Positions 1,869 to 15,027 of a stretch of 15,563 bases of DNA are shown piece by piece (within the stretch, counting starts at the first letter, position 1; every line of letters begins with the position of its first letter). Origin of the DNA: a virus; IMG/VR virus record IMGVR_UViG_3300042562_001768. One strand, given 5' to 3'. The notes beneath the pieces are model-generated. The model saw only the letters and a list, made by a program, of their open reading frames with translations, made no database searches and had not been told where the DNA came from. The position numbers and the translations under genes were made by a program.

Positions 1869-1911
1869 CCAATGCATAAGGAAAACACCCCCAATGCATA
1901 AGAAAACGCCC
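1869..1911. repeat. Tandem imperfect direct repeat (22 + 21 nt) overlapping the terminase ribosome-binding site and start codon
   Basis: ccaatgcataaggaaaacaccc (1869-1890) is followed by ccaatgcataagaaaacgccc (1891-1911). The ATG of the second copy (1894) is the terminase start; AAGGA at 1878-1882 lies 11 nt upstream. Confidence 0.7.
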
Positions 1912-3609
1912 ATCAGACGGTCACGCAAAGCGCCCGCCGGAGCGCTCCAGATTGCGGACGCCTACGCTCACGAAGCGCTGAAGGGCAAGCGCTACAACAC
2001 CCGCATCCGCGCCTTCAGTTCCCAGTGGCTGGCCGCGCGGGCGGCACCAAAGTCGGCTGGTTACGTGTGGGATGAGGAGCGCCTGACCAGCCTGGTGGAG
2101 TACGCGCGGGAGCGGTTCAAGATCACGCTCCTGCCGTGGCAGTACCTGGCCTTCGCCACGCTCGTTTCGTGGCGCGATCAGGCCGACCTTCCGGTGGTTC
2201 GGGTGTTCGCGATACAGGTCGCGCGGGGTGCGGGGAAGACGGAGATGGTGGCGATCCTGGCGTCTTGGCTGGTCGAGTGGACCGCGCGCGCGGGTCGTTC
2301 GCCGATCGAGATCGTGGTGCTCGCGACGCAGATGGAGCGCGCCAAAGACGTGTGGCTTCGGCAGAAGGTCAGCCTCGCGGACGACCCGTCCTGGCGCCTG
2401 GTCGGTGGTCTGTCGTCGCTCGTCATTGCCGCGGCCCACCACGCTGGCGGGGTGGTCAAGTGCAAGCCATCGACCCCTAAGAACGCGGACGGAATCCTGC
2501 CCACGCTCGTCGTCTTGGACGAGGCGGCGCGCATCGAAGACGAGACCTACGCGCGCGCGCTCAGTTCGATCAGCAAGGTGCCAGGCTGCCAGGCGCTGAT
2601 CGTTACGACGCCGGACAAGGATCAGCGCCGCCGCGGATACGGCACGACCATCGGACTGCTGGAGCGCGCCTACGACGAGAACACTTCGCCGCCGCCAGGG
2701 ATCGCCGGGATGATCTTCGGCATCGACACCACCGATCGACCGGACGATCCGGAGGCGTGGTACAAGGCGCACCCCAGCCTCGGCATCACGAAGCAGCTCA
2801 GCGACTACACGCTCGGCAAGGCGCTGCTCTTGGATCCCGGCGCACCGAACGATCGCGACGAGTTCTACACCCAGTTCCTCGCGACCTTCACGGATGACCT
2901 GGCCGGTGCCATGCCGCTAAGTCTGTTCGACGCGTGCGTCGAGGACTGGGATCTCTCCGACTTCCGCGGCTTCCCGGCAGTGGTCGGAGTCGACTTCAGC
3001 CAGGGCGGTTGGAGCGGTCAGCAGACGGACCTGACCTCGATCAATGTGTCGGTGTGGGACGGCGTCCGCATCCGCTCCAGGTCGTACCACTACTGGGCCG
3101 GGACCAACATCGAAGCGGACGAAGTCAAGTGCCGACAGCCGCTGCGCGAGTGGCGGGACGCGGGTCTCTTGGAGGTCTGCGGCAACACCATTGACTACTC
3201 GCTACTGGAGGCGCGGACCATCGCCATCGCGTCGATCGTTGACCTGCGGCACTGGGTCGCGGACCCAGCAGGGAAGGCGCCCGCCTGGTGCGAGGCGATG
3301 GAGAAGCGACACGGATGGCGCTGGTCGCGCGCTCCTCAGTCGCACATTTACATGGGCTCGGCGTGGGCAATTTGGAGCGACGCCGTGCGCGGTCGGCGCA
3401 TCCAGTTCGCACCCGATCCGGTGCTCCGCGCGAACCTGTCGCACACGCGCGCGGTGCCAACCGACCGAGGTCTGAGCGTGCCAAGCAAGGGGCGCAGCAC
3501 CAGCAACATCGACGCCGTCACCGCGTGCTGCATGTGCATCAAGGTGCTCAACGATCGCGAGCTCATGACCGAGAGTCTGTACGGCGACCCGGGCAAGATC
3601 TCCTTCTGA
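1894..3609 (+). CDS. terL: Terminase large subunit
   Basis: Long ORF with a P-loop-like segment VFAIQVARGAGKTEMVAILASWLV and a Walker-B-like LVVLDEAARIEDE, followed by a C-terminal nuclease-sized region. ATG at 1894 has an AAGGA Shine-Dalgarno; the ORF-track start at 1831 is a TTG extension. Followed by portal and capsid genes. Confidence 0.9.
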   Translation: MHKKTPIRRSRKAPAGALQIADAYAHEALKGKRYNTRIRAFSSQWLAARAAPKSAGYVWDEERLTSLVEYARERFKITLLPWQYLAFATLVSWRDQADLPVVRVFAIQVARGAGKTEMVAILASWLVEWTARAGRSPIEIVVLATQMERAKDVWLRQKVSLADDPSWRLVGGLSSLVIAAAHHAGGVVKCKPSTPKNADGILPTLVVLDEAARIEDETYARALSSISKVPGCQALIVTTPDKDQRRRGYGTTIGLLERAYDENTSPPPGIAGMIFGIDTTDRPDDPEAWYKAHPSLGITKQLSDYTLGKALLLDPGAPNDRDEFYTQFLATFTDDLAGAMPLSLFDACVEDWDLSDFRGFPAVVGVDFSQGGWSGQQTDLTSINVSVWDGVRIRSRSYHYWAGTNIEADEVKCRQPLREWRDAGLLEVCGNTIDYSLLEARTIAIASIVDLRHWVADPAGKAPAWCEAMEKRHGWRWSRAPQSHIYMGSAWAIWSDAVRGRRIQFAPDPVLRANLSHTRAVPTDRGLSVPSKGRSTSNIDAVTACCMCIKVLNDRELMTESLYGDPGKISF

Positions 3610-3674: not shown

Positions 3675-4796
3675 ATGAACCGTCTGTTCAAGCTCTTCGG
3701 CTTCAAGTCTGCACCGATGAATATCGGTTGGGACTCTCCGTCGAACTACGTCCGAGCAGACGTCGCGGCGCTGCCGTCCGTGCAGCGATGCATGAACCTG
3801 ATCGCGAACGATGTCGCGCGCTGCCCACTGGTGGTGCGCGACGCCGAGCAGATGATGGTCGAAGACTCGACGATCACCGCGCTCTTTACGAATGCGGCGC
3901 AGGCCGAGCTAAGCGGAACAGACTTCCGCCGATGGATGGCTTCGGAAGCGCTGCTGTCTGGCAACGCCTTCGCGCAGATCGTGACCGACTCGATGGGCCA
4001 GCCCGTCGCGTTGCGTCCGCTGGCGAGCTCAGCCGTCAGCCTGAACGAAGACAGTAACGGCGTGCTGCATTGGACCTACTCCGGCACCGAGATCGACTAC
4101 GCCTCGATGCTGCACTTCAAGGGTGCGCCGAGTCCAGGGAATCCGTACTGGGGCACAAGTGTCCTGAGCGCTGCGGCGACAAGCCTCGACGCAGTCGCGC
4201 AAACCGAAGCAGCCTGGAACGCATACACCCGGAGCGGCGGATACGGCAAGCTTGTCTTCAGTCATCCCGGCGCTCTCCAGCCTGCGACCCGCGACGCCAT
4301 GCGGACCGCCTTCATGTCGGGACACATGACTGCCGCCGCAGCGGGCACACCGATCTTCGTCGGCGAAGGGATGACCGTGACCGCGCTCTCGCCGTCGTGG
4401 GGCAAGGACATGATCGAGCTCCGCGCCGCGGGCGCGCGCGTGGTCGCGAACATGTTCGGCGTACCAGCCGCGTACCTCGACATGAGCGAGGCGCGCACGC
4501 AACCAGAGATCGCACAGTCGTACGTCTCGTCGTGCTTAGAAATCTGGGCCACGACCTGGGAAGCGGAGATCAGTAACAAGCTCTTGCGACCTGGTCTTCG
4601 TGTTCGTTGGGACTGGTCGCCTGTCTTGGAAGGAGACTTCCGAACCGCTGGCAAGGCGTACGGAAAGTTCGTCGAGGTCGGCGTGCTCAGTCCGAACGAC
4701 GTCCGCGTTCGCCTTGGCTACTCGCCGCTGCCTGGTCTCTGGGATCCGAGGCCAGTGATGAGTGGCATCACCATCGAATCGGACGGTCTGCAATGA
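3675..4796 (+). CDS. Portal protein (HK97-like family)
   Basis: 373-aa ORF directly between terminase and prohead protease; MNRLFKLFGFKSAPMNIGWDSPSNYV... First in-frame ATG after the terminase stop; the ORF-track start at 3288 lies inside terminase. No clear Shine-Dalgarno, so the start is uncertain (alternative ATG at 3717). Confidence 0.8.
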   Translation: MNRLFKLFGFKSAPMNIGWDSPSNYVRADVAALPSVQRCMNLIANDVARCPLVVRDAEQMMVEDSTITALFTNAAQAELSGTDFRRWMASEALLSGNAFAQIVTDSMGQPVALRPLASSAVSLNEDSNGVLHWTYSGTEIDYASMLHFKGAPSPGNPYWGTSVLSAAATSLDAVAQTEAAWNAYTRSGGYGKLVFSHPGALQPATRDAMRTAFMSGHMTAAAAGTPIFVGEGMTVTALSPSWGKDMIELRAAGARVVANMFGVPAAYLDMSEARTQPEIAQSYVSSCLEIWATTWEAEISNKLLRPGLRVRWDWSPVLEGDFRTAGKAYGKFVEVGVLSPNDVRVRLGYSPLPGLWDPRPVMSGITIESDGLQ

Positions 4797-6403
4797 TGCG
4801 AGAACTCCGCGCACAACTGGCACCGACTACCGACGGGACGGTCCGCGGATACGCGGCGCTGTTCGACTCTTGGTCGCTGCCGATCACCGAGCGCGGACGC
4901 ACGTTCCGCGAACGCATCAAGCCGGGCGCACTACAGCCGGACGGGAACGTCTCACTGTGGTGGATGCACGACCACACCGACCCACTCGCGAACACGCGCA
5001 GCGGATCGCTCACGATTACAGAGGACGCGAAGGGGATCGCATTCGTAGCCGACTTGGGTACGAGCGCGCGCGCGGACGAGATCCGCGACCTCATTCGCCG
5101 CGGGGTGGTCGACCAGATGTCGATCGGCTTCGTCGCACTCTCAGATATCTGGGACGGCAATACGTCCCGCACGATCACTAAGGCCACGCTCCATGAGGTG
5201 AGTTTGGTCGAATCGGCTGCGTACCCCGGTACGTCAGCAACCGTCCGCAACCACCAAAGGAAACCCGCTATGTCCGTCAAAGAAGATCGTGCTCGCATCG
5301 CCGAGCTCAACGCTGAATACAACACCGCTACCGATGAGCGTCAGTTCGCCATCATGGACGAAGTCGCAGAGTGTGAGGAGCGCATCGCTGGCGCCCAGGC
5401 TGCATTCACCAACCGCGCCGCCACACCGTTGGCAGTCGCACCGTCGGCACCGCTTGCCGTCGTTCGTCGCATCACGCCTCCAGTCCGTGACGAGCAGCGC
5501 GAGTGGTTCCGCACTGGCTTCAAGCAGAACCGATCCATCGGTCTGAGCGTGACGGGTGGCAACGCTACCGCCGGGCAAACTTTGCCGACCCTGAGCGGTG
5601 AGTTCATCAAGGCGCTCGACCAAGAGTCCGTGATGCGTAGCCTCGCAACCGTCGAGACCCGTGGACTCGATACCGATATCCAAGTGATCGGCACGCGCCA
5701 GACCGCTGTTCTGCTGGCAGAAAAGGCGGCGTACACATCGACCGACTTCACCGCGACCAAGCTCTCTTTCAAGAGCTACAAGTCCGGCGCGCTGACCGAC
5801 GTCACGGAAGAGGCCTTGCAGGACACCGTGTGGGATGTTGCGAGTCAGGTAGTCAGTGAACACGGTCGCGCTCACTCGCGACTCTGGGAGAACTACTACG
5901 TAAACGGTACCGGCACTTCCCAGCCGCAAGGCGCGTTTGCTGCGACCTGGACAACGACGTACACCACGGCGGCTGTTGGCTTGCCAACGGTGGCGGACTT
6001 GGTCACGGCTGCGTACAAGTTGCCAACCCCGTACCAGGCGAACGCGTCCTGGCTCATGCACTCAACTGTTTGGGCTGCGGTCGTCGGCAGTGCGGCCAGC
6101 GGCAAGTACCTCCTGAACGGTGAGAACGGGAACATCCTCAAGGACGGGGCCGTCGCTCTGTTCCTCGGCAAGCCTGTCTACCTCAGCGAGTGGGCACCAT
6201 CGGCAGCAACCGCTGCTACGGTGTCGTGCCTGTACGGTGACTTCAAGGCGGGCTACCGAATCATCGACCGCTCGATGCTGAGCTTCACCGTTGATGATGT
6301 GTCCCAGATGTCTAACGGACTCATCCGCTACACCAGTCGTATGCGCTCCGACGCCAAGGCCGTCGACGCGACCGCGATTGTCCCGGTCGTCATCAAGACC
6401 TGA
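4793..6403 (+). CDS. Prohead (capsid maturation) protease fused in frame to HK97-type major capsid protein; internal ribosome-binding site and ATG at 5270 may also give stand-alone capsid protein
   Basis: ATG at 4793 overlaps the portal stop (ATGA). The N-terminal ~159 aa (VRGYAALFDS...WWMHDHTD...VDQMSIGFVALSD...LHEVSLVESAAYPGT) match the HK97 prohead protease pattern. From MSVKEDRARIAELNAEY onward it is a coiled-coil delta region followed by a capsid-protein-like body ending ...DATAIVPVVIKT. No stop codon separates the two parts. AAGGA at 5257-5261 precedes the in-frame ATG at 5270. Confidence 0.85.
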   Translation: MMRELRAQLAPTTDGTVRGYAALFDSWSLPITERGRTFRERIKPGALQPDGNVSLWWMHDHTDPLANTRSGSLTITEDAKGIAFVADLGTSARADEIRDLIRRGVVDQMSIGFVALSDIWDGNTSRTITKATLHEVSLVESAAYPGTSATVRNHQRKPAMSVKEDRARIAELNAEYNTATDERQFAIMDEVAECEERIAGAQAAFTNRAATPLAVAPSAPLAVVRRITPPVRDEQREWFRTGFKQNRSIGLSVTGGNATAGQTLPTLSGEFIKALDQESVMRSLATVETRGLDTDIQVIGTRQTAVLLAEKAAYTSTDFTATKLSFKSYKSGALTDVTEEALQDTVWDVASQVVSEHGRAHSRLWENYYVNGTGTSQPQGAFAATWTTTYTTAAVGLPTVADLVTAAYKLPTPYQANASWLMHSTVWAAVVGSAASGKYLLNGENGNILKDGAVALFLGKPVYLSEWAPSAATAATVSCLYGDFKAGYRIIDRSMLSFTVDDVSQMSNGLIRYTSRMRSDAKAVDATAIVPVVIKT

Positions 6404-6421
6404 TTACTTGCCATCCTCGCA

Positions 6422-6449
6422 GCCGGGGCGGTCTTCGGACCGTCCCGGC
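6422..6449 (+). terminator. Strong GC-rich hairpin with UUCG tetraloop just after the capsid gene (terminator or RNA-stability element; no U-tract)
   Basis: gccggggcggtc (6422-6433), ttcg (6434-6437), gaccgtcccggc (6438-6449): a 12-bp stem with one G-U wobble. Lies between the capsid stop (6403) and the next start (6465). Confidence 0.4.
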
Positions 6450-6464
6450 AGCGCAAGGGGAACT

Positions 6465-6737
6465 ATGCCAGTACCAACCGTAGCAGAGTGCAAGGCCTGG
6501 CTGAACATCGCACACGCGACGGATGACGCTGTGCTACAGGCACAGATTGACGCAGCGATGAGCGAGCACACCGAAGCCACTGGCCGGATCTCGGCAACCA
6601 TCACCCAGGTCGAGAAGATCGCGCTGATGGAGAAGGTCGGCCAGCTCTATGGGTTCCGCGGCGATGACGTTGTCTCGCCGTCCACTTGGTTCACCGACGG
6701 CATCAGACGGATGTTCAACCCCAACAGCATCGGATGA
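6465..6737 (+). CDS. Head-tail connector / adaptor protein (gp6-like)
   Basis: 90 aa, MPVPTVAECKAWLNIAHATDDAVLQAQIDAAMSEH..., resembling gp6-like head-tail connector N-termini. AAGGGG at 6455-6460 sits just upstream of the ATG. Position immediately after the capsid gene. Confidence 0.65.
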   Translation: MPVPTVAECKAWLNIAHATDDAVLQAQIDAAMSEHTEATGRISATITQVEKIALMEKVGQLYGFRGDDVVSPSTWFTDGIRRMFNPNSIG

Positions 6738-6740
6738 ATC

Positions 6741-7070
6741 ATGGCTGGCGCTGGATACCGACGCGAACGCATGATCTACCAGACGCCGAGCCGCAGCACT
6801 GATGTCGCAGGCCAGCAGACGGTAACGTGGTCGGACGTTGTCACTCTGGCTTGCGCCATCACACCGACACAGCGCGAGGTCCTCGACGATCTTGGTGTGT
6901 CCGTGCGGACGGACATCTCGGTCGAGTCTTCGTACCACGCGAGCGTCGTGGCGAAGGGTCGGCTGAAGCACACGGTCAGCCTGTCGATCTACAACATCAT
7001 GAGCGTGACCGATCCGGACGCGGGGCGCAAGCGGCGCCTCCGGATCCTTGCTGCGGAGATCGTCCCATGA
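6741..7070 (+). CDS. Head closure / head-tail joining protein
   Basis: 109 aa, size and position typical of head-tail joining proteins (MAGAGYRRERMIYQTPSRS...RLRILAAEIVP). Call is mainly by synteny. Confidence 0.5.
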   Translation: MAGAGYRRERMIYQTPSRSTDVAGQQTVTWSDVVTLACAITPTQREVLDDLGVSVRTDISVESSYHASVVAKGRLKHTVSLSIYNIMSVTDPDAGRKRRLRILAAEIVP

Positions 7071-7846
7071 TCGCAGCCAAGGTCGACCTGAAGGTGATCA
7101 ACGGATACATCGAACGGCTCACCCTCGCGGGTCGCGCCAAGGTCTACGCACAGGCCGCGCGCGATGCAGCGAACCCAGTACGAAACGAACTGCGCCGCGC
7201 CTGGCGCAAGGCCAAGCGCCGCCGTGGCAAGATCACCAGGAAGATCGCGGCAGCCCAAGAGGTGCGCGTCTTCGTCGGTCAGCGCGGCGGGCGCAAGGGC
7301 GTGGCCACCGTGATGGTGGGAACGAACTACAAGCGCGGCGGCTCGGTCAAGTTGTGGCATCTGCTTGAGCGCGGATATCAGCACTACGGCGGGGGATCGA
7401 ACTCGGTCTACACCCCACGCGACGCGCGCGCGCGCGACACGGAGAAGCGCGAGGACGAGGTAGCCCGCGTGACTGGGGAAGAACAAATCGCGCACGAGGT
7501 GCGGATGGGAACCGATGGAACCAAGTACTCCCGGCAGCGCGTGGCACAGGTGCGCCATCAAGCGCGCGTGTGGTTCCGACAGAACAACCCAGCCGACACG
7601 GCGCACCGCCGCGCAGCCTGGGCAAGCAAGCAGTCAGCGATGAAGTCCGCGCGCGGCGGGGTCATCGCAAACCGGAAGCGCATCCTCGGTCGGCACATCT
7701 CTGAGCCCATCGCGCGGCTCGCGAAGGAACGCCTGCCAGCCATCGCAGCGCAACACGCGCAGCGCCTCGCGTGGTATCAGATCGACGGACGCAAGGCCGG
7801 GGCGGCGAAGCCGAAGTTCTCGAACGCCGACTGGTGGCAGCAATGA
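7067..7846 (+). CDS. Basic structural protein, possible neck / tail-completion protein
   Basis: ATG at 7067 overlaps the upstream stop (ATGA). 259 aa, very Arg/Lys-rich. Function inferred from position only. Confidence 0.4.
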   Translation: MIAAKVDLKVINGYIERLTLAGRAKVYAQAARDAANPVRNELRRAWRKAKRRRGKITRKIAAAQEVRVFVGQRGGRKGVATVMVGTNYKRGGSVKLWHLLERGYQHYGGGSNSVYTPRDARARDTEKREDEVARVTGEEQIAHEVRMGTDGTKYSRQRVAQVRHQARVWFRQNNPADTAHRRAAWASKQSAMKSARGGVIANRKRILGRHISEPIARLAKERLPAIAAQHAQRLAWYQIDGRKAGAAKPKFSNADWWQQ

Positions 7847-8247
7847 GCGTGGCAGGAGCAGAGTTCTATCAAGCGCTCTACACCCGCGCGACCACCGTGG
7901 CGGGTCTCGTCCTGAGTCCCGACCTGCGGCGCGAGGGTGACCCCACGCCAGCGATGTCGTACGAAATCACCAGCGCTTCTTTCAGCGTCGAGACCGACGG
8001 CAGAATCAACGAGGTCACCGCGATCGAGGTCCGCTGGGAAGCGGTCGCCGATTCACTCATCACCGCGTGGGATCTCGCGTGGAGTGTGCGCGGCGCGATC
8101 GACGGCAAGTGGGGGGTCGGCAGTCTCGACTTCGTCCTGACGTCGGCATCGATGTCCTCCGGTATGGCAACGCCCGACGACGGGCAAGGGGACGCCGAGC
8201 GCGTCGTAACTCTCACTACATCTTTCCTCGTCATGGAGACAACCTGA
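7843..8247 (+). CDS. Tail terminator-like protein
   Basis: ATG at 7843 overlaps the upstream stop (ATGA). 134 aa, located directly upstream of the major tail protein candidate. Synteny-based. Confidence 0.4.
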   Translation: MSVAGAEFYQALYTRATTVAGLVLSPDLRREGDPTPAMSYEITSASFSVETDGRINEVTAIEVRWEAVADSLITAWDLAWSVRGAIDGKWGVGSLDFVLTSASMSSGMATPDDGQGDAERVVTLTTSFLVMETT

Positions 8248-8642
8248 TGGCAACTCGCGCAATGGCTGGCTACGGCGGCACACTCACCTTTAAGATCGGG
8301 GCCGGGACCGCCAACGGTATCCCAGTCCGGAACATCACCATGTCGCGCCAGGCGGCAGAGTTCGATATGACGTCGATCTCGGATACCAAGATCTACAGCG
8401 GTCCCGGTCGCGTGAAGCGGAGCGGCTCCTGTGATGCGTACTTCGGAACGCTGTCGGCAAACTTCACGACCTCGATCGAAGCCATCGACCTAGCAGCGCC
8501 AGCCGAACTCGTCATCACGGACGCGGCTGGCGGGTCCACGACCATGAAGGTCATCATCACCGCCGCGGACTTGAAGTACGACGGCAGCGATGCGGTCATC
8601 TACTCCATCAGCTTTTCCGAAACGATCAGCATCACCGTATGA
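8247..8642 (+). CDS. Major tail (tube) protein candidate
   Basis: 131 aa, Gly/Thr/Ser-rich and beta-like: MATRAMAGYGGTLTFKIGAGTANGIPVRNITMSRQAAEFDMTSISDTKIYSGPGRVK... Pattern and position are typical of small siphovirus tail tube proteins. TGATG overlap with the upstream gene. Confidence 0.55.
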   Translation: MATRAMAGYGGTLTFKIGAGTANGIPVRNITMSRQAAEFDMTSISDTKIYSGPGRVKRSGSCDAYFGTLSANFTTSIEAIDLAAPAELVITDAAGGSTTMKVIITAADLKYDGSDAVIYSISFSETISITV

Positions 8643-8890
8643 CCTACCGACCAGTCATCCTCGAATACTCGTCGCTCACCCTTGAGGTCCGGAGACCAAC
8701 CCTCCGCGACACCGTGGAGGCAGACACATCGGACAAGCTTTGGTGGGTTCGCTGCGTGCGCCATGTCGGCGGCGCAGACCTCACCAGGGACGAGGCGCTC
8801 GACCTCGATGCCGCGGACGGTAACACGCTCGCGCAGGAGGTGCTTCGCCCACACCCTACACCGCCGCTGAGAAGCGGCTCTGGAGACTGA
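8639..8890 (+). CDS. Tail assembly chaperone candidate
   Basis: 83-aa ORF between the major tail and tape-measure candidates. ATG overlaps the upstream stop (ATGA). Call by synteny. Confidence 0.4.
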   Translation: MTYRPVILEYSSLTLEVRRPTLRDTVEADTSDKLWWVRCVRHVGGADLTRDEALDLDAADGNTLAQEVLRPHPTPPLRSGSGD

Positions 8891-9063
8891 TGCCACACCT
8901 AGACGCCGACGCCGCACTCGCAAGCGAGCACACCACGCTGGAGCGGATCGAGTACCTACTCGCCACGCTTGCCTGCGCGATGACTGGCCAGGCGCCACAG
9001 CAGTTGCTGCCGTGGCGTCGGCGTGGCATCGAGGACTTCATGGGGCGCATCAATGGCCAATGA
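8890..9063 (+). CDS. Small ORF (57 aa) in the -1 frame relative to the upstream chaperone candidate; possible second chaperone ORF
   Basis: My translation is MPHLDADAALASEHTTLERIEYLLATLACAMTGQAPQQLLPWRRRGIEDFMGRINGQ, with ATG at 8890 (TGATG overlap) and stop TGA at 9061-9063. Not in the ORF track (below length cutoff). No canonical slippery heptamer seen upstream. Confidence 0.3.
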   Translation: MPHLDADAALASEHTTLERIEYLLATLACAMTGQAPQQLLPWRRRGIEDFMGRINGQ

Positions 9064-9661
9064 GTTCAAGTCAGTCCTCACCCTGACCGCGGACAGTTCC
9101 GGCGTCACCGCCGGAGTTAACCAGGCGATGCAGTCCCTCAACAAGTTGCAAGGCGGGATGTCCGCGCTGACATCGCTCGCGGGCGTCGGCTTTGCCATCG
9201 GCATTGGCAAGCAACTCTTCGGCGCAGCCACCGACGAGATGGCACGGATCAAAGACCTCGCGCACTCCTTCAGTCCGGAAGGGATGCGCGGCGCCAACGC
9301 CATGAACATGGCGACCCAGCAGGCGGACATGGCTATCGGCAAGGCGTTCGGTCCGATCGTGGAAGCGATCGACCAGGCATCCGTCGCAGCGATCAAGGAA
9401 CTGACCACGTTCATCATCGAGCACAAGGACGAGATCGGGATGGCGATGATCTATCTGACCGAGGTCACGCACGTGGCAGCAATGGCTATGGCAGAGTTCC
9501 TCGTCGGTCTGGGCAAGACCGTCGAGTGGCTGCATAACTTCATGGACAATCCACTACAGGCGACCGCCCAACTCGCTGGCGATGTTGCGATGCAGGCCAG
9601 TGGCGCCAACCTCGTCATCGGTATCTATGACCTCCTCAAACAGAAATTGGGTGGCACATGA
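9053..9661 (+). CDS. Tape measure protein candidate, unusually short (~202 aa)
   Basis: Ala/Gly/Met-rich, apparently helical protein with a hydrophobic segment ALTSLAGVGFAIGIGKQLFGAA, at the tape-measure position after the chaperone-like ORFs. ATG at 9053; an alternative GTG lies at 9023. Confidence 0.45.
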   Translation: MANEFKSVLTLTADSSGVTAGVNQAMQSLNKLQGGMSALTSLAGVGFAIGIGKQLFGAATDEMARIKDLAHSFSPEGMRGANAMNMATQQADMAIGKAFGPIVEAIDQASVAAIKELTTFIIEHKDEIGMAMIYLTEVTHVAAMAMAEFLVGLGKTVEWLHNFMDNPLQATAQLAGDVAMQASGANLVIGIYDLLKQKLGGT

Positions 9662-10611
9662 CCGCGAAGCTCATCGAGATCCCATCAAGCGATACCGTCG
9701 AGATGGCGATGCCTGGCGAGGAGATGAGTTGGACGCAGCACTTCCGCTACGTCTCAAACGCCGCCAAGCTCACCGCGTGGGATGTGCTCGGCGACACCGC
9801 CACTGGCGTACCGCAGCAGGGTTCAAGATACCCAGCCACGCCGTCGACCAACTGGAAGTGCAACTTCGTCGCGCGCAGTGTGACAGCGACACCCGTACCA
9901 CAAGCGGCTGCGGGGTGCGCCTTCGACGTCCGAGTGAAGTGGACCGGGCGCGCGGCGCAGGATCCGACGCGTCCGTACTTCAAGATCACGCGCTCGACCT
10001 CGACGCGCAGTCATGGCTTCTACCGCACAGGCGACATGTTCACGATCACGCAGGCAAACGGCAGCGAGCCCTTCCCGCCAGTCCAGGACATGGGCGGGGT
10101 AAAGAGTGACACCAACGGTCAGCCGATTGTGATGCCGATCTACCAGCAGCAGATCCAGGTCGACATGCTCTGGGACCGAAGCCGGGACAACGCCAGCTCG
10201 CTTGGCTTTACGGCATCGCCTGACCCGCCGATGAACTGGTACGACAACTACTGCCTCACACGGAACTCCGTGCCGTTCCTCGGTTGGCCGATCGGATACG
10301 TCACCTACCTCGGATGGAGTCTGAACCCGTCACCGGACGAGGTGTGCGTTTTATCGCATCGCTTCCTGGCGGACGATTTCCAGTTCTGTGAGCAGCGCCC
10401 GCTACCGAATCAAAGCGGCAAACCGTTCTTAGCGGCGGGTCTGACCTGGGGCGGAACGGCTAGCACACCAGCCGTAACCGTGCAATCCCAGGCGTACGTC
10501 TTCTGGTACCAACCGTTCCAGACTCTTGTCGACTACTCCACGCTCTTCACCATCCGTCCGAATCTGTGGACGGCGATCAACACTCCGAAGCCAGCGTGGC
10601 CGTCGCCATGA
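9658..10611 (+). CDS. Minor tail protein (distal tail / baseplate candidate)
   Basis: 317-aa ORF, ATG overlapping the upstream stop (ATGA). Trp/Tyr/Pro-rich. Position after the tape-measure candidate. No specific motif recognised. Confidence 0.5.
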   Translation: MTAKLIEIPSSDTVEMAMPGEEMSWTQHFRYVSNAAKLTAWDVLGDTATGVPQQGSRYPATPSTNWKCNFVARSVTATPVPQAAAGCAFDVRVKWTGRAAQDPTRPYFKITRSTSTRSHGFYRTGDMFTITQANGSEPFPPVQDMGGVKSDTNGQPIVMPIYQQQIQVDMLWDRSRDNASSLGFTASPDPPMNWYDNYCLTRNSVPFLGWPIGYVTYLGWSLNPSPDEVCVLSHRFLADDFQFCEQRPLPNQSGKPFLAAGLTWGGTASTPAVTVQSQAYVFWYQPFQTLVDYSTLFTIRPNLWTAINTPKPAWPSP

Positions 10612-11111
10612 CGTACGAATGGCCGATCTTTACCGAAGGGCTTTACGGCAAGGCGAACGCCTCGGTGTGCAACGCCTGGACGCAATCGGCGCGCATCGTG
10701 CTATCAAGCGCGGAGGCGCTCGACTGGGCGAACCGAACGAAAGACGGTATGGACCAGCCCGATCGGTGGCTTGCGAAGGTCACGGGCGCAGCAGTCATCA
10801 GCAGTAATCGCTGGTCGTACACCTTTGTGCCTGTCATTATCTCCGGCACGACTACCGCGAACCTATCCGGCACTGGCCAGGCTGGCTCCGGCGCCTTGAA
10901 CTTGCGCGAGATGAACAACACCACAATCCTCGCGGATGGTTCGCCGCTCGCGAGTGGCGTGACCATCGGTCCCGTCGGCTCCACCTGGGGCGGATCGAGT
11001 TGGTCTACGAGTTCGCTGACTGGAATCGTCGAGATGAACGTCGAACATAAAGCCGACGGCAGCGTCGCGTATTGGTTTTCCTCACCGAACCCTGGGAGAT
11101 GTGCAACATGA
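10608..11111 (+). CDS. Minor tail protein, Gly/Ser/Thr-rich
   Basis: 167 aa from ATG 10608 (ATGA overlap); the ORF-track start at 10566 lies inside the previous gene. Low-complexity GTTTANLSGTGQAGSG and SSWSTSS segments are typical of fibre-like proteins. Confidence 0.5.
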   Translation: MTYEWPIFTEGLYGKANASVCNAWTQSARIVLSSAEALDWANRTKDGMDQPDRWLAKVTGAAVISSNRWSYTFVPVIISGTTTANLSGTGQAGSGALNLREMNNTTILADGSPLASGVTIGPVGSTWGGSSWSTSSLTGIVEMNVEHKADGSVAYWFSSPNPGRCAT

Positions 11112-12415
11112 AATACGACGTAATCCGGTCATACTGGCCAGCTCCGATCTACGACACGCCTCTTCCTGCTGGCGTTTATGGCAGTATGCGGGCGTTCAAC
11201 TTCATACGGGAAACCACTACCAAAGGGCTAGACGTAGCAATCGTTGGAGACAGCAACACGGGCTACAACGCTCCGAACGATGGCGGTTACGTTCAAGGCA
11301 TTTCCTATGGTTTGGATGTTGCGTTCCCTTCAAATGCTTACGCCACCGCTACGTTTACGCTGATGAACGAAGGGAACTCTGCTGGCTACAAGTGCTCAAT
11401 GCAAGGCGCATCACTGGCCAGCGCACCGGGTGGCTACGTTTCGGGAAAAGCGAGCGGCGACGCGGGTATTAAAACTTTCTTTGACCGTGGTAGTGGAAGT
11501 TGGAGTGATGCGGGCGGCGCGAACGCAGGGACGTACACGGATTTCCCATGGCTTGAATCGGGAAATCAAACCGAGAACATTAACCGTGGTATGACAATCG
11601 ACTCAGATCACCCCATCGGCGTAAACAACGCGCTCCGATATAGAGTCCTGCGGAGTCAGACCACAACGGGCGGCAGTTTCTATATGCGCGTTCGTCTGAA
11701 TGGTGGCTCATATGCACCGATTGCCACATCGGCTTCGATCCCTTGCAGTGGCGCAACTAATCTAGTTGCATCAGAACTACCGATCACTGTTGGCACTCGC
11801 AATCTGTCCTTGGCTTCATTCTGGAGCATCCAAAACGCAGTTGGTCTTTACACGGTCGGCCCGTGGGGCGGTTTGTTGCAATCGATGTACCGCCCAACAG
11901 TTGGTTGGGCAGTGGATGCGATGTATTTCATGGGTGGTGCAACCATCACCGCCATCGATACAGACTTCGCCGCAGCAAACACCGCTGGGTATCTCACCGC
12001 CACCATGCTTGCCGAGTATTACAACCGACAACTAGCGGCGGGTGGGGATGGTCGCATCGTTGTTTGGATTCAAGGCGGAGCCAACCAAAGCGACTGGACA
12101 TCGAGTCCAAGCACATGGCCAGCAAAGTGGGAATCCATTATGAATTACGTCCGCACAGCAGCCACATACGCCGCCATACCTTCGGAGAAGTTGGCATTCG
12201 TTGCGATGTGTACGCATGACATCACGGGTTATGACTTTGCTTCTAGGCGAGCCGCGCTCATCGCATTGACTACTGCAAACCCTGATCTAACGGTAGTCAA
12301 CATTCCGGAGATTATTCCGTTTGCTTCTTACTCTGCCTATGCAAGCGGAGCGCACTTGTCTAAGACCGGATACCAAACGATTGGCAATGCCATTATTCAA
12401 CGGATGCTTTCTTGA
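11108..12415 (+). CDS. SGNH/GDSL-like hydrolase (esterase/deacetylase-like) protein, tail-associated or lysis enzyme
   Basis: 435 aa from ATG 11108 (ATGA overlap). Block-I-like VAIVGDSNTGYNA near the N-terminus and a block-V-like ASGAHLSKTGYQTIGNAI near the C-terminus, with a long Gly/Ser/Thr-rich insert between. The Asp three residues before the His is not conserved (SGAH), so catalytic integrity is uncertain. G+C visibly lower than the head genes. Confidence 0.45.
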   Translation: MKYDVIRSYWPAPIYDTPLPAGVYGSMRAFNFIRETTTKGLDVAIVGDSNTGYNAPNDGGYVQGISYGLDVAFPSNAYATATFTLMNEGNSAGYKCSMQGASLASAPGGYVSGKASGDAGIKTFFDRGSGSWSDAGGANAGTYTDFPWLESGNQTENINRGMTIDSDHPIGVNNALRYRVLRSQTTTGGSFYMRVRLNGGSYAPIATSASIPCSGATNLVASELPITVGTRNLSLASFWSIQNAVGLYTVGPWGGLLQSMYRPTVGWAVDAMYFMGGATITAIDTDFAAANTAGYLTATMLAEYYNRQLAAGGDGRIVVWIQGGANQSDWTSSPSTWPAKWESIMNYVRTAATYAAIPSEKLAFVAMCTHDITGYDFASRRAALIALTTANPDLTVVNIPEIIPFASYSAYASGAHLSKTGYQTIGNAIIQRMLS

Positions 12416-12714
12416 TCCACCTAGCGGTCGTCATCCTCACGTTCCTCCTGTCAGCCTGTGCATCGAGCACGGCGCAGATCGCGCACGCAGCCAACGCGTC
12501 CCGCGTCTCGGTCGGCGCCGCGCGCGGACACCTGGTCGCCGCCAGCGCGGAGCTCGACCAGATAGAGGCTCAATGCCAGGTGGTGAGCGAGCAGATCCCG
12601 TACGTCTCTGATGATGTGCCGAGCTACATGTCGGTTCTTCAGTACGCCAGTGTTGCCGTCGTCGTCTTCGTCGTTGGCAGTCTCATCTACACCTACATAC
12701 CGCGGAAGAAATGA
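12412..12714 (+). CDS. Membrane protein with N-terminal lipoprotein-type signal (lipobox LSAC) and C-terminal transmembrane helix; lysis-associated candidate
   Basis: TTG start overlapping the upstream stop (TTGA). MIHLAVVILTFLLSAC ASST... has a hydrophobic h-region followed by L-S-A-C. The C-terminus ASVAVVVFVVGSLIYTYI PRKK is a hydrophobic helix with a basic tail. No in-frame ATG near the N-terminus, so the start is uncertain. Confidence 0.4.
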   Translation: MIHLAVVILTFLLSACASSTAQIAHAANASRVSVGAARGHLVAASAELDQIEAQCQVVSEQIPYVSDDVPSYMSVLQYASVAVVVFVVGSLIYTYIPRKK

Positions 12715-12839
12715 TGCTGACCCAAACTCAATATCTGATATGGCTCGTTGCGATTCTCGTCACGACAGCGGCTGCGGGGTGCCGAGTTGGCGCCACTTGG
12801 TCGACCTTCAAACATCAAACAAAAAAGGCTCGCAAATGA
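12711..12839 (+). CDS. Small single-pass membrane protein (42 aa), holin-like candidate
   Basis: My translation is MMLTQTQYLIWLVAILVTTAAAGCRVGATWSTFKHQTKKARK: one hydrophobic helix and a basic C-terminus. ATG overlaps the upstream stop and the next start overlaps its stop. Below the ORF-track length cutoff. Confidence 0.3.
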   Translation: MMLTQTQYLIWLVAILVTTAAAGCRVGATWSTFKHQTKKARK

Positions 12840-12949
12840 TTACGCAAGCAGACCTCTCCAGTACCCTCGGCTCAATTTTCTTCGCGACCAGTCTCGGATT
12901 CGTGGGCTTGATACTTGGTTACATCCTGTGCCGCCGGGCAAGCAAATGA
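12836..12949 (+). CDS. Small single-pass membrane protein (37 aa), holin-like candidate
   Basis: MITQADLSSTLGSIFFATSLGFVGLILGYILCRRASK, the C-terminal part of ORF-track ORF 12611..12949, whose N-terminus overlaps the previous genes. ATGA overlaps at both ends. Confidence 0.3.
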   Translation: MITQADLSSTLGSIFFATSLGFVGLILGYILCRRASK

Positions 12950-13707
12950 GTCTGCTTCGGTGTTGCTGCGGTAGCGCAACCTGTGCATCCTGTCCATCGT
13001 TACCAGGCGACTGGTCGACGCGGGACTATCGTTTGTTCATACCAGCAGTCAAGCCTGTTGGATATGGTCGCGCGAGTTCAGTGCCGAGCGGTCTATACAC
13101 CGGGCCCTGCACGCCAGCGGATCCGTACTGGAACTTGGCAGAGTGTGCATTCGACTTTACCACTGGCTCGCTGTACTACGTCTATTCTCGACTCGCAAAC
13201 TGCGAGCCCTTTCCAGAAGCTTGCGGCGAAGTCTTAAAGTTCCCGCGGGAGATCGGTGGCTTCTATACGGACAACCTTGTCCCGTCGATTACGTTCTCTA
13301 CGCAGATTGCCACGCGCACATACAACCAAACAGGCGACGTTTCATATTTCATCCAGGCGGACGTATCGCGATGCTGGGGCGGATGGGCTGGGTGTGAGAG
13401 TTGCACCAACCGAACCAAGGTCAGCCTCTACTACTTTTTTGGCAACAACTTCACATACAACGACAACTGCACAAACCATCCTGCTGGTGTTACAAAGACT
13501 GTGGAGCTGGAGTATCTCTCGAATCCTTACGCCGCAAGTGAAGGCATCGGAAAAACTTGCTACCTCAGAACCTGGAAAGTGAGCCCTGGGCCGACAGCCT
13601 TCTGCTACCCGGAAACAGGTCAATATGGCTGCGCTGATCCTTGCGTCCTTGGATCGTGTTCGTTCTTTGGATCAAGCAACTTTCCCTCAACGGTAACAAT
13701 CGTATGA
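12946..13707 (+). CDS. Cysteine-rich protein (18 Cys in 253 aa), unknown function
   Basis: ATG at 12946 overlaps the upstream stop (ATGA); the ORF-track start at 12748 is an upstream extension. N-terminal MSLLRCCCGSATCASC cluster and Cys spread through an aromatic/Asn/Thr-rich body. G+C at third codon positions visibly lower than the head genes. Confidence 0.6.
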   Translation: MSLLRCCCGSATCASCPSLPGDWSTRDYRLFIPAVKPVGYGRASSVPSGLYTGPCTPADPYWNLAECAFDFTTGSLYYVYSRLANCEPFPEACGEVLKFPREIGGFYTDNLVPSITFSTQIATRTYNQTGDVSYFIQADVSRCWGGWAGCESCTNRTKVSLYYFFGNNFTYNDNCTNHPAGVTKTVELEYLSNPYAASEGIGKTCYLRTWKVSPGPTAFCYPETGQYGCADPCVLGSCSFFGSSNFPSTVTIV

Positions 13708-14274: not shown

Positions 14275-15027
14275 ATGGATGGCATCACGAAGCTTGCTGC
14301 GGCACTGGTCGCAGCCCAGAAGGATCTGACAAACCCCAAGTTTGATAAGCAGAATCCGCACTATCACAGTAAGTACGCATCACTGGCAGGCATTATCGAC
14401 ACGGTCCGCCCGGCGCTCTTAAAGCACGGACTGGCGGTGGTGCAACCGATCGAAACGGGGACCACATCCGGGACGATTCAGGTCCACACGATCCTGATCC
14501 ACACCTCCGGCGAGTCGATCAAGTCGACCCAGTCGGCACCGGCCCCAGGCGACCCGCAAAAGTTGGGCAGCCTGGTCACGTACTTGCGCCGCTATGGACT
14601 GTCTGCGCTGCTCATGCTGGCAGGGGACGACGACGACGATGCGAACGCCGCCGCGGCACCAACGCAGAAGACCCAGCAAACGCTTGAGCGCCACGTAGAG
14701 GCGTCCGCAGCGCTCTCCGGTGTCGAGAGAGCCATCGCAACCGCAGCCGCTCCTAGGGCATCCAAGGCGCCCGCGCGCGCTGCCGCCGCGAAGGGCATCC
14801 GAGTCGACGCAACGGTGAGCAAGATCGAGGAGCGCACCTCGGCGGCTGGCAAGGAGTACGCATGGATCCACACCGAGGACGCGGGGCGCCTCACATCGTT
14901 TGACAACATCGACGGGATGTCGGTCGGCGCGCGGTACACGTTCCTCCTCCGGAACGACCGCGACGGCAACCCGACGATCGTGGACGACTTCAGCGCTTGC
15001 GTCTCCGACGAGGAGATCCCATTCTGA
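14275..15027 (+). CDS. erf: ERF-family single-strand annealing protein (recombinase)
   Basis: N-terminal NPKFDKQNPHYHSKYASLAGIIDTVRPALLKHGLAVVQ, then DPQKLGSLVTYLRRYGLSALLMLAGDDDDD, which resembles the conserved core of ERF proteins. GGGAG Shine-Dalgarno 8 nt upstream of the ATG. Confidence 0.75.
   Translation: MDGITKLAAALVAAQKDLTNPKFDKQNPHYHSKYASLAGIIDTVRPALLKHGLAVVQPIETGTTSGTIQVHTILIHTSGESIKSTQSAPAPGDPQKLGSLVTYLRRYGLSALLMLAGDDDDDANAAAAPTQKTQQTLERHVEASAALSGVERAIATAAAPRASKAPARAAAAKGIRVDATVSKIEERTSAAGKEYAWIHTEDAGRLTSFDNIDGMSVGARYTFLLRNDRDGNPTIVDDFSACVSDEEIPF

Follow-up and report, generated by a model that had tools for sequence, protein, structure and literature searches.

In phage HK97, the prohead protease gp4 and the major capsid protein gp5 are encoded by two genes that lie 2 nt apart. 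In phage lambda (C/Nu3), phage Mu (I/Z) and the herpesviruses (UL26/UL26.5), protease and scaffold genes are nested in the same frame. Protease and capsid protein can also be fused in a single gene. Such fused genes were reported in Arthrobacter phage clusters AM, AU and AN and in Rhodococcus phage RRH1 (Klyczek et al. 2017, PMC5513430, which also mentions the scaffold-protease fusion of lambda), and a protease-scaffold-capsid fusion was reported in Microbacterium phage cluster EE (Jacobs-Sera et al. 2020, PMC7302621). The fusion has been described as common in siphoviruses with genomes of about 14-18 kb (clusters AN, EE, CW and DM, and RRH1), and the published annotations treat the gene as one product (PMC5513430, PMC7302621). 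Here we analyzed a gene of this type at positions 4793-6403 of a 15,563-bp stretch of viral DNA (IMG/VR virus record IMGVR_UViG_3300042562_001768), which is called the window at its full length. We propose that translation may start not only at the 5′ end of this gene but also at an internal ATG at 5270, on the boundary between the protease part and the capsid part.

The protease-capsid fusion itself is already known, and the window represents a new uncultured sequence family of that architecture. The preliminary description of the window had mentioned fused genes in small actinobacteriophages, which was correct, and had regarded the fusion as unusual, which holds less than it assumed, the fusion being a described feature of this phage class. 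The gene shares with the fusions of small-genome siphoviruses an open reading frame (ORF) of about 515-660 amino acids (aa) with an S78-type protease, a scaffold/delta region and an HK97-fold capsid protein, a position directly behind the portal gene, often with a 4-nt overlap, and a genome of 14-18 kb. However, these fusions have no useful sequence similarity to the window. Families that span protease and capsid are also catalogued, namely NCBIfam NF045541 (scaf_prot_MCP2) and PHROGs 2263, 617 and 13042. The profile phrog_2263 aligned with aa 16-533 of the window protein, while NF045541 scored 20.3 bits against a cut-off of 525 and matched the protease part only, and the window protein is not a member of that family. 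Because the fusion is already catalogued for the smallest siphoviruses, it contributes little by itself; the logic of its expression is what could matter. The parts of the fused gene are as follows (pLDDT, the predicted local distance difference test score, refers to the AlphaFold2 model).

4793-6403, + strand: fused ORF for prohead protease, delta/scaffold region and HK97-fold major capsid protein (PF04586 and PF05065; TIGR01543 and TIGR01554)
4829-5257, + strand: prohead serine protease domain (Peptidase_S78), aa 13-155 (PF04586, E = 2.7e-28)
4967-4969, + strand: codon of His59 in the WWMHD motif, putative catalytic His, nearly invariant in the family alignment
5120-5122, + strand: codon of Ser110 in the MSIGF motif, putative catalytic Ser, nearly invariant in the family alignment
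5216-5272, + strand: linker between the two domains, aa 142-160, of variable sequence and length, with Met160 as its last residue (pLDDT below 50)
5276-5422, + strand: delta/scaffold-like helices, aa 162-176 and 181-210 (pLDDT about 71-83; covered by the N-terminal part of TIGR01554)
5423-5602, + strand: second disordered stretch, aa 211-270, variable and with indels in the alignment (pLDDT below 50)
5585-6391, + strand: HK97-fold capsid domain, aa 265-533 (PF05065, E = 2.5e-41)

The gene is a single uninterrupted ORF of 536 codons (536 aa) on the + strand, ending with TGA at 6401-6403. Its ATG at 4793 overlaps the stop codon of the portal gene (ATGATGA; ATGA overlap at 4793-4796), and in the protein alignment Met1 of most homologues falls on a second ATG, at 4796. 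A 4-nt overlap with the upstream gene is also annotated in phages Inspire2, Anseraureola and RRH1. The N-terminal part, proposed earlier to be a prohead protease, matched PF04586 (99.6 bits against a cut-off of 21) and TIGR01543, the equivalog of the HK97-family prohead protease (70.4 bits against 59; positions 1-139 of 142), both above the curated cut-offs. A BLASTP alignment placed Ser110 (MSIGF) on Ser114 of HK97 gp4 (MSVGF), and His59 was likened to FFNH65K of gp4 by motif resemblance alone. His65 and Ser114 are presumably the catalytic residues of gp4. The conserved motifs suggest that the S78 protease of the fusion is probably active. When PDB was searched by sequence with the protease domain, only chance matches were returned.

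The remainder of the protein had been described as a capsid protein with a delta region, and this was borne out by PF05065 (142 bits against 24.2) and by TIGR01554, the equivalog for the major capsid protein of HK97 (172 bits against 27.5, E = 2e-50), which covers the full precursor (positions 15-384 of 385). In the AlphaFold2 model, which was built on 35 homologues and is of moderate confidence (mean pLDDT 64), a folded protease domain (aa 1-141, pLDDT 67-84) is followed by the linker (aa 142-160), two helices, the disordered stretch (aa 211-270) and the capsid fold. A Foldseek search with the modelled capsid returned HK97-fold structures with E values from 1e-12 to 1e-5, the best being the capsid of RcGTA (Rhodobacter capsulatus gene transfer agent; E = 1e-12), followed by EcCI2, a capsid-forming phage-inducible chromosomal island (cf-PICI), T5 and HK97. 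The small-capsid structures of RcGTA (6tsu, 6tb9) and EcCI2 (9gyi) thus ranked above HK97. Among phages that share the architecture, small capsids were measured in negative stain, 37 nm for GMA5 and 43 nm for GRU3 (PMC4524720).

Compared with HK97, the locus matches the same two equivalogs, has an alignable motif with the putative catalytic Ser, keeps the order portal, protease, capsid, adaptor, head closure and gp10-like protein, and has a helical delta region before the HK97 fold. It differs in having one fused gene in place of gp4 and gp5. The protease parts also differ at the C-terminus: gp4 has 225 aa, with an extension beyond the 142-position core, whereas the protease of the window ends about 5-7 residues before Met160.

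The continuous frame of 4793-6403 and the internal start signal were located by the preliminary description at exactly the right coordinates. The motif AAGGA at 5257-5261 is followed by 8 nt (aacccgct) and then by an in-frame ATG at 5270-5272, which opens MSVKEDRARIAELNAEY. The elements of the predicted internal start are the following.

5256-5263, + strand: Shine-Dalgarno (SD)-like sequence AAAGGAAA, 6 nt upstream of ATG 5270, with the core AAGGA at 5257-5261
5270-5272, + strand: in-frame ATG (Met160), predicted internal initiation codon
5270-6403, + strand: nested ORF of 377 aa, predicted stand-alone capsid precursor (delta/scaffold and capsid)

The duplex energy of this SD with the anti-SD is -6.1 kcal/mol, close to the median of -6.4 kcal/mol for the presumed gene starts of the window, and the start of TerL at 1894 uses the same AAGGAAA. 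In a synonymous-recoding test, the SD of the window was found to be made by an unusual codon choice (P = 0.0245). A scan of the fusion gene for sigma-70-type consensus sequences found no promoter-like site inside it, which fits nesting at the level of translation rather than of transcription. The product that would start at Met160 resembles a complete capsid precursor. Its aa 11-374 match positions 16-384 of the 385 positions of TIGR01554, and this nearly full coverage indicates that the 377-aa product and a free-standing capsid precursor of the HK97 type are collinear, delta region included. Free-standing homologues have 385-387 aa, near the 377 aa of the nested product. The N-terminus of one of them, P0036, aligns about 27 residues before Met160 in a part where the alignment is unreliable, and only rough collinearity is claimed for it. 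Taken by themselves, the SD and ATG of the window are weak evidence for a start, and they exceed chance only through comparison.

For this comparison, a protein search yielded 33 clusters with 58-96% identity that carry both Pfam domains, many of them on contigs 15-17.8 kb long. In IMG/VR and JGI metagenomes, scans yielded 82 loci whose match crosses residue 160 (68 distinct nucleotide sequences), and all of them are in one frame with no stop. One homologue, P0002, was considered as a naturally split, capsid-only gene and was rejected, because its contig ends about 170 nt upstream, within the protease domain; the gene caller had taken the internal SD and ATG as the start of P0002 on a contig that lacks the upstream part.

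Met160 was invariant in all 35 aligned proteins, and its codon was ATG in each of the 82 loci. It is the only invariant residue in the linker, which is variable, prone to indels and the least conserved segment. An SD core (AGGA or GAGG) was present 8-9 nt upstream of the ATG in 23 of 23 distinct junction sequences. The residues encoded at the SD differ among the junctions (QRK, RKE, RKD, QKE, KKE, NKE, REE, RQE and TNEA), and so does the codon phase of the SD, which is CAA-AGG-AAA in the window and AAG-GAR in most relatives. Duplex energy, recoding and mRNA structure were compared in 12 representatives with less than 90% identity. The anti-SD duplex upstream of Met160 had a mean energy of -8.3 kcal/mol and was never worse than -6.1 kcal/mol. 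Among five conserved Met columns, an SD was found only at Met160, where the conservation of the upstream peptide was also the lowest (0.54 over six columns). In the relative L026, as in the window, the recoding test indicated that the SD was created by codon choice (P = 0.007). Furthermore, the 40-nt mRNA windows centered on residues 160-163 took ranks 1 to 4 of 521 alignment columns for least structure. The mean folding energies of these columns were -4.4 to -4.9 kcal/mol, compared with -11.4 kcal/mol over the whole gene, and the z-score was positive in all 12 representatives.

A similar signal was observed in other lineages of fused genes. In a distant metagenomic family (L071-L075, about 25% identity, contigs of 14.6-18.5 kb), AAAGGA and an ATG follow directly after the protease C-terminus. 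Of 14 fusions from cultured small-genome phages, eight had a clear SD and ATG 10-26 residues past the C-terminal motif of the protease, in locally unstructured mRNA, and in several of these the SD at the boundary was the best of the whole gene. The internal ATG and SD duplex energy of each are given here.

Inspire2: M160, -9.2 kcal/mol
Root: M178, -9.6 kcal/mol
Atraxa: M165, -7.5 kcal/mol
Anseraureola: M166, -9.4 kcal/mol
RRH1: M274, -9.3 kcal/mol
GMA5: M265, -10.3 kcal/mol
Coeur: M307, -7.4 kcal/mol
Jeanie: M276, -6.6 kcal/mol

The protease boundaries were set by Pfam and by motif-anchored alignment; Pfam recognized the protease in three of ten proteins, and the others rest on the alignment. 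Inspire2, Root and Atraxa are mutually 40-44% identical, and a (T/P)-M-N junction is common to RRH1, GMA5, Coeur and Jeanie. The eight cultured cases are not independent, and together with the family of the window and L071-L075 they represent roughly five lineages. The boundary start signal is common, not universal, among small-genome fusions.

Several of the cultured fusions are longer at the N-terminus. RRH1 gp07 and the proteins of GMA5, Coeur, Jeanie and EricDab have an extra extension of about 100-150 aa before the protease, which is hydrophobic in RRH1. In RRH1, GMA5 and EricDab the extension is a transmembrane one, and the window protein has none. An internal ATG at a domain boundary was remarked in gp9 of the Gordonia phage EricDab (EpicDab), with a genome of 16.7 kb, and its N-terminal extension was described as a possible holin-like domain with two transmembrane segments (Pollenz et al. 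2022, PMC9671378). Our SD scan independently gave the ATG at aa 117 as the internal ATG with the best SD in EricDab (-9.8 kcal/mol). In contrast to the start proposed here, this ATG lies upstream of the protease, behind the holin-like extension, and not between protease and scaffold. The position of this ATG at the other boundary hints at a three-product nested gene in some phages. Initiation at the boundary between protease and scaffold was not mentioned in a full-text literature search that included the cluster papers, most subscription journals being outside the reach of that search.

The idea of two products had been raised in the preliminary description. As a prediction it is now backed by the invariant ATG, the conserved SD and the minimum of mRNA structure, and by the recurrence of the signal in other fusion lineages. 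We therefore consider it reasonably probable, judging from sequence comparison, that one mRNA gives two co-terminal proteins, a 536-aa polyprotein and a 377-aa precursor, which would co-assemble and so carry the protease in covalently. The protease-delta-capsid polyprotein would be started at 4793 or 4796, and the delta-capsid precursor would be started at ATG 5270 by means of AAAGGAAA in unstructured mRNA. At 110 Da per residue, the two would have masses of roughly 58-59 and 41 kDa. By way of the delta and capsid parts, which are identical in both, the products would assemble together into a small procapsid, in which only a fraction of the subunits would carry a protease. Covalent carriage would take the place of the C-terminal tail by which free proteases, HK97 gp4 among them, are targeted non-covalently, and such delivery fits the absence of gp4's long C-terminal extension from the protease of the window. 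After assembly, the protease would cut within the disordered region at about aa 211-270, so that protease and delta are freed and a mature capsid protein of about 270-320 aa remains; we infer the place of this maturation cleavage by analogy with HK97 gp5.

The proposed logic is that of the nested protease and scaffold genes C/Nu3, I/Z and UL26/UL26.5, extended to the capsid protein itself. As in those systems, the long product would contain the protease, the shorter C-co-terminal product would be the bulk assembly protein, and the shared C-terminal part would bring the protease into the procapsid. In lambda, Mu and the herpesviruses, however, the shared part is the scaffold and the capsid gene is separate, whereas the shared part in the window would include the capsid protein. 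The conserved nested start is credible as an apparently undescribed variant of the strategy of lambda C/Nu3. As to its wider role, the balance tips narrowly toward boundary initiation being a normal, selected strategy of the protease-scaffold-capsid fusions in many very small tailed phages, by which the protease:capsid ratio would be set.

Should translation indeed start at the boundary ATG, a single gene and a single mRNA would suffice to place few proteases among many capsid subunits. The annotation would then change from one coding sequence to two nested coding sequences in hundreds of deposited genomes, and the targeting of the protease in the absence of the C-terminal tail of HK97 gp4 would be explained. 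The arrangement would also offer a compact design for self-processing protein cages. The cultured analogues (Arthrobacter cluster AN, Microbacterium cluster EE) make the nested start directly testable. Among those that carry the signal are Arthrobacter phage Inspire2/Decurro (gp7, Met160), Microbacterium cluster EE (gp5, Met166) and Curtobacterium phage Root (gp6, Met178).

The serious rival of this proposal is a single product. Only the 536-aa polyprotein would then be made, each subunit would bring a protease, and autoproteolysis would remove protease and delta. Met160 and the purine-rich stretch would be kept for reasons of the protein, for instance as part of a flexible, charged linker, as a helix N-cap or as a determinant of cleavage. 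We regard this explanation as unlikely. A number of observations speak for it or otherwise weigh against an internal start. In eight of the 12 representatives, K-E or E-E residues force the SD, as AAGGAG or GAGGAG in most lineages; the recoding test gave P values of 0.78-0.99 there and is uninformative for them, and the SD could be a by-product of the charged linker. The lower-GC, purine-rich composition of the site also lowers mRNA structure, so that the SD signal and the structure signal are not fully independent. Equally strong, conserved SD-like sites without a start codon occur elsewhere in the gene (e.g., at TEEAL), and the 12 representatives share ancestry. Of the 93 in-frame ATGs that lie inside genes of the window, five (5.4%) are preceded by an SD at least as strong, one of them at 5117 in the fusion gene itself. 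A weak first start combined with a strong internal start was considered as the means of setting the ratio and was unsupported: the two SDs of the window are comparable (-7.3 and -6.1 kcal/mol), and most homologues have a strong GGAGG ahead of the first start. Since the first start also has a good SD, the sequence alone gives no mechanism for the protease:capsid ratio.

The cultured fusions contain further cases of this kind. In the scan of the 14 fusions, Emperor and EricDab had no SD and ATG at the boundary, and in Schiebs, BlueFeather, Piku and Whytu the only candidates were weaker or lay more distally. Arthrobacter phage ScienceWizSam (cluster AU, 58 kb) is an ambiguous case, as the strongest SD and ATG of its gp14 (5009-7165; -11.7 kcal/mol) is at aa 241, far from the end of the protease. 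This site is in an acidic scaffold-like region, has no minimum of mRNA structure, and may be a different nesting point or due to chance. The fusions that lack the signal indicate that a fusion can work without a boundary start, and the published annotations of these genes as one product agree with a single polyprotein. The space in the procapsid does not forbid it either. In a rough volume estimate, which assumed T=4 with 235 subunits, a head sized at 2.1 nm3 per bp, a procapsid whose radius is 0.85 times that of the mature capsid, and 1.21 nm3 per kDa, a protease on every subunit would fill about 40% of the procapsid interior and the delta regions alone about 16%; by this estimate, a procapsid made entirely of fusion protein would be crowded but not impossible.

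On the other hand, a Met kept for structural reasons should sometimes become Leu, Ile or Val, whereas the ATG was retained in every one of the 82 loci at 58-66% overall identity and in the segment that is conserved least. In the window and in L026 codon choice rather than the residues creates the SD, and the site is the global minimum of mRNA structure. The same three-part signal also occurs at the same boundary in lineages without detectable similarity of the linker. These observations argue for an internal start over a single product.

Another possibility is that the SD and ATG are the fossil start of a once separate capsid gene, which is no longer used after the stop codon of the protease gene was lost. 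Given that gp4 and gp5 of HK97 are just 2 nt apart, such a fusion would be expected to leave behind an SD and ATG where the genes were joined, and the fusions without the signal could be older ones in which it has decayed. However, the ATG, the SD spacing and the low structure persist within the family of the window, although its linkers differ in sequence and length and its synonymous sites have reached saturation (at about 60% protein identity). The group of RRH1, GMA5, Coeur and Jeanie and that of Inspire2, Root and Atraxa likewise keep the signal at 26-44% identity. Persistence across diverged groups indicates purifying selection, and we hold an unused relic to be quite improbable.

That a sequencing or assembly error erased a stop or introduced a frameshift between what are truly two genes, as the preliminary description had considered, has a probability close to nil and is excluded in practice, because the 82 loci from many independent metagenomes are fused in frame without a stop and cultured, finished phage genomes show the same architecture, while nothing was found in favor of an error except that P0002 had been called capsid-only.

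The window, with 61.6% GC, is a genome that lacks little and belongs to a very small tailed phage without a cultured isolate, and the related contigs are 15.0-17.8 kb long. An ORF from 15027 runs past the right end of the window; its counterpart in the relative L002 is a protein of 229 aa of the helix-turn-helix (HTH) type. In L002 the HTH-type gene is followed by a 31-aa gene and then by an 83-aa gene, and the last one corresponds to positions 29-280 of the window. This order, together with the ORF that runs off the right end, indicates that the window is a nearly complete genome, circularly permuted or trimmed at the ends and about 150-300 bp short. The other recognized genes and features are listed below.

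1020-1511: PDDEXK nuclease
1501-1776: HNH endonuclease (PF01844, E = 8e-12)
1894-3609: TerL
3675-4796: portal protein (Pfam Phage_portal)
4793-6403, + strand: protease-capsid fusion
6422-6449, + strand: hairpin with a 12-bp GC-rich stem and a UUCG loop, in the 61-nt gap between the fusion gene and the adaptor gene
6465-6737: head-tail adaptor
6741-7070: head-closure protein
7067-7846: gp10-like protein
7843-13707: unrecognized, presumably tail genes (about 6 kb, co-oriented)
14275-15027: ERF recombinase

A near-DNA search (megablast) of 50,697 deposited phages found no near relative of the window. With tblastn against the deposited phages, the best matches had less than 31% identity and were to separate genes, and no fused gene of a cultured phage covered the query. 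A scan of 185,579 species genomes gave only two short contigs of metagenome-assembled genomes (L101 and L102; 4.0 and 2.1 kb), labelled Sandaracinus and Verrucomicrobia. These are most likely mis-binned phage contigs that carry no reliable information on the host.

PHROGs and Pfam searches recognized the adaptor, the head-closure protein and the gp10-like protein but gave no match in the region 7843-13707, and neither a tape-measure protein nor a major tail protein was recognized in it. The longest ORF of this region encodes 435 aa (11108-12415), and its homologue in L098 has a weak match to CBM_4_9. The HNH gene (1501-1776) lies immediately 5′ of TerL (1894-3609). A pairing of HNH and TerL genes is characteristic of HNH-assisted cos packaging. 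In cluster AN, the small actinophages have an HNH gene as well, located at the genome end. The portal gene starts with ATG at 3675 after a 65-nt gap behind TerL and, unlike most starts in the genome, has no detectable SD (duplex energy +1.5 kcal/mol).

A hairpin follows the capsid gene in the window, as it does in HK97, where the one behind gp5 is annotated as a putative terminator. The hairpin at 6422-6449 has a minimum free energy of -35.2 kcal/mol (z = -4.8), none of 200 shuffled sequences was as stable, and it is without a T-run. It may be a terminator, an attenuator or an mRNA stabilizer that boosts the expression of the capsid gene.

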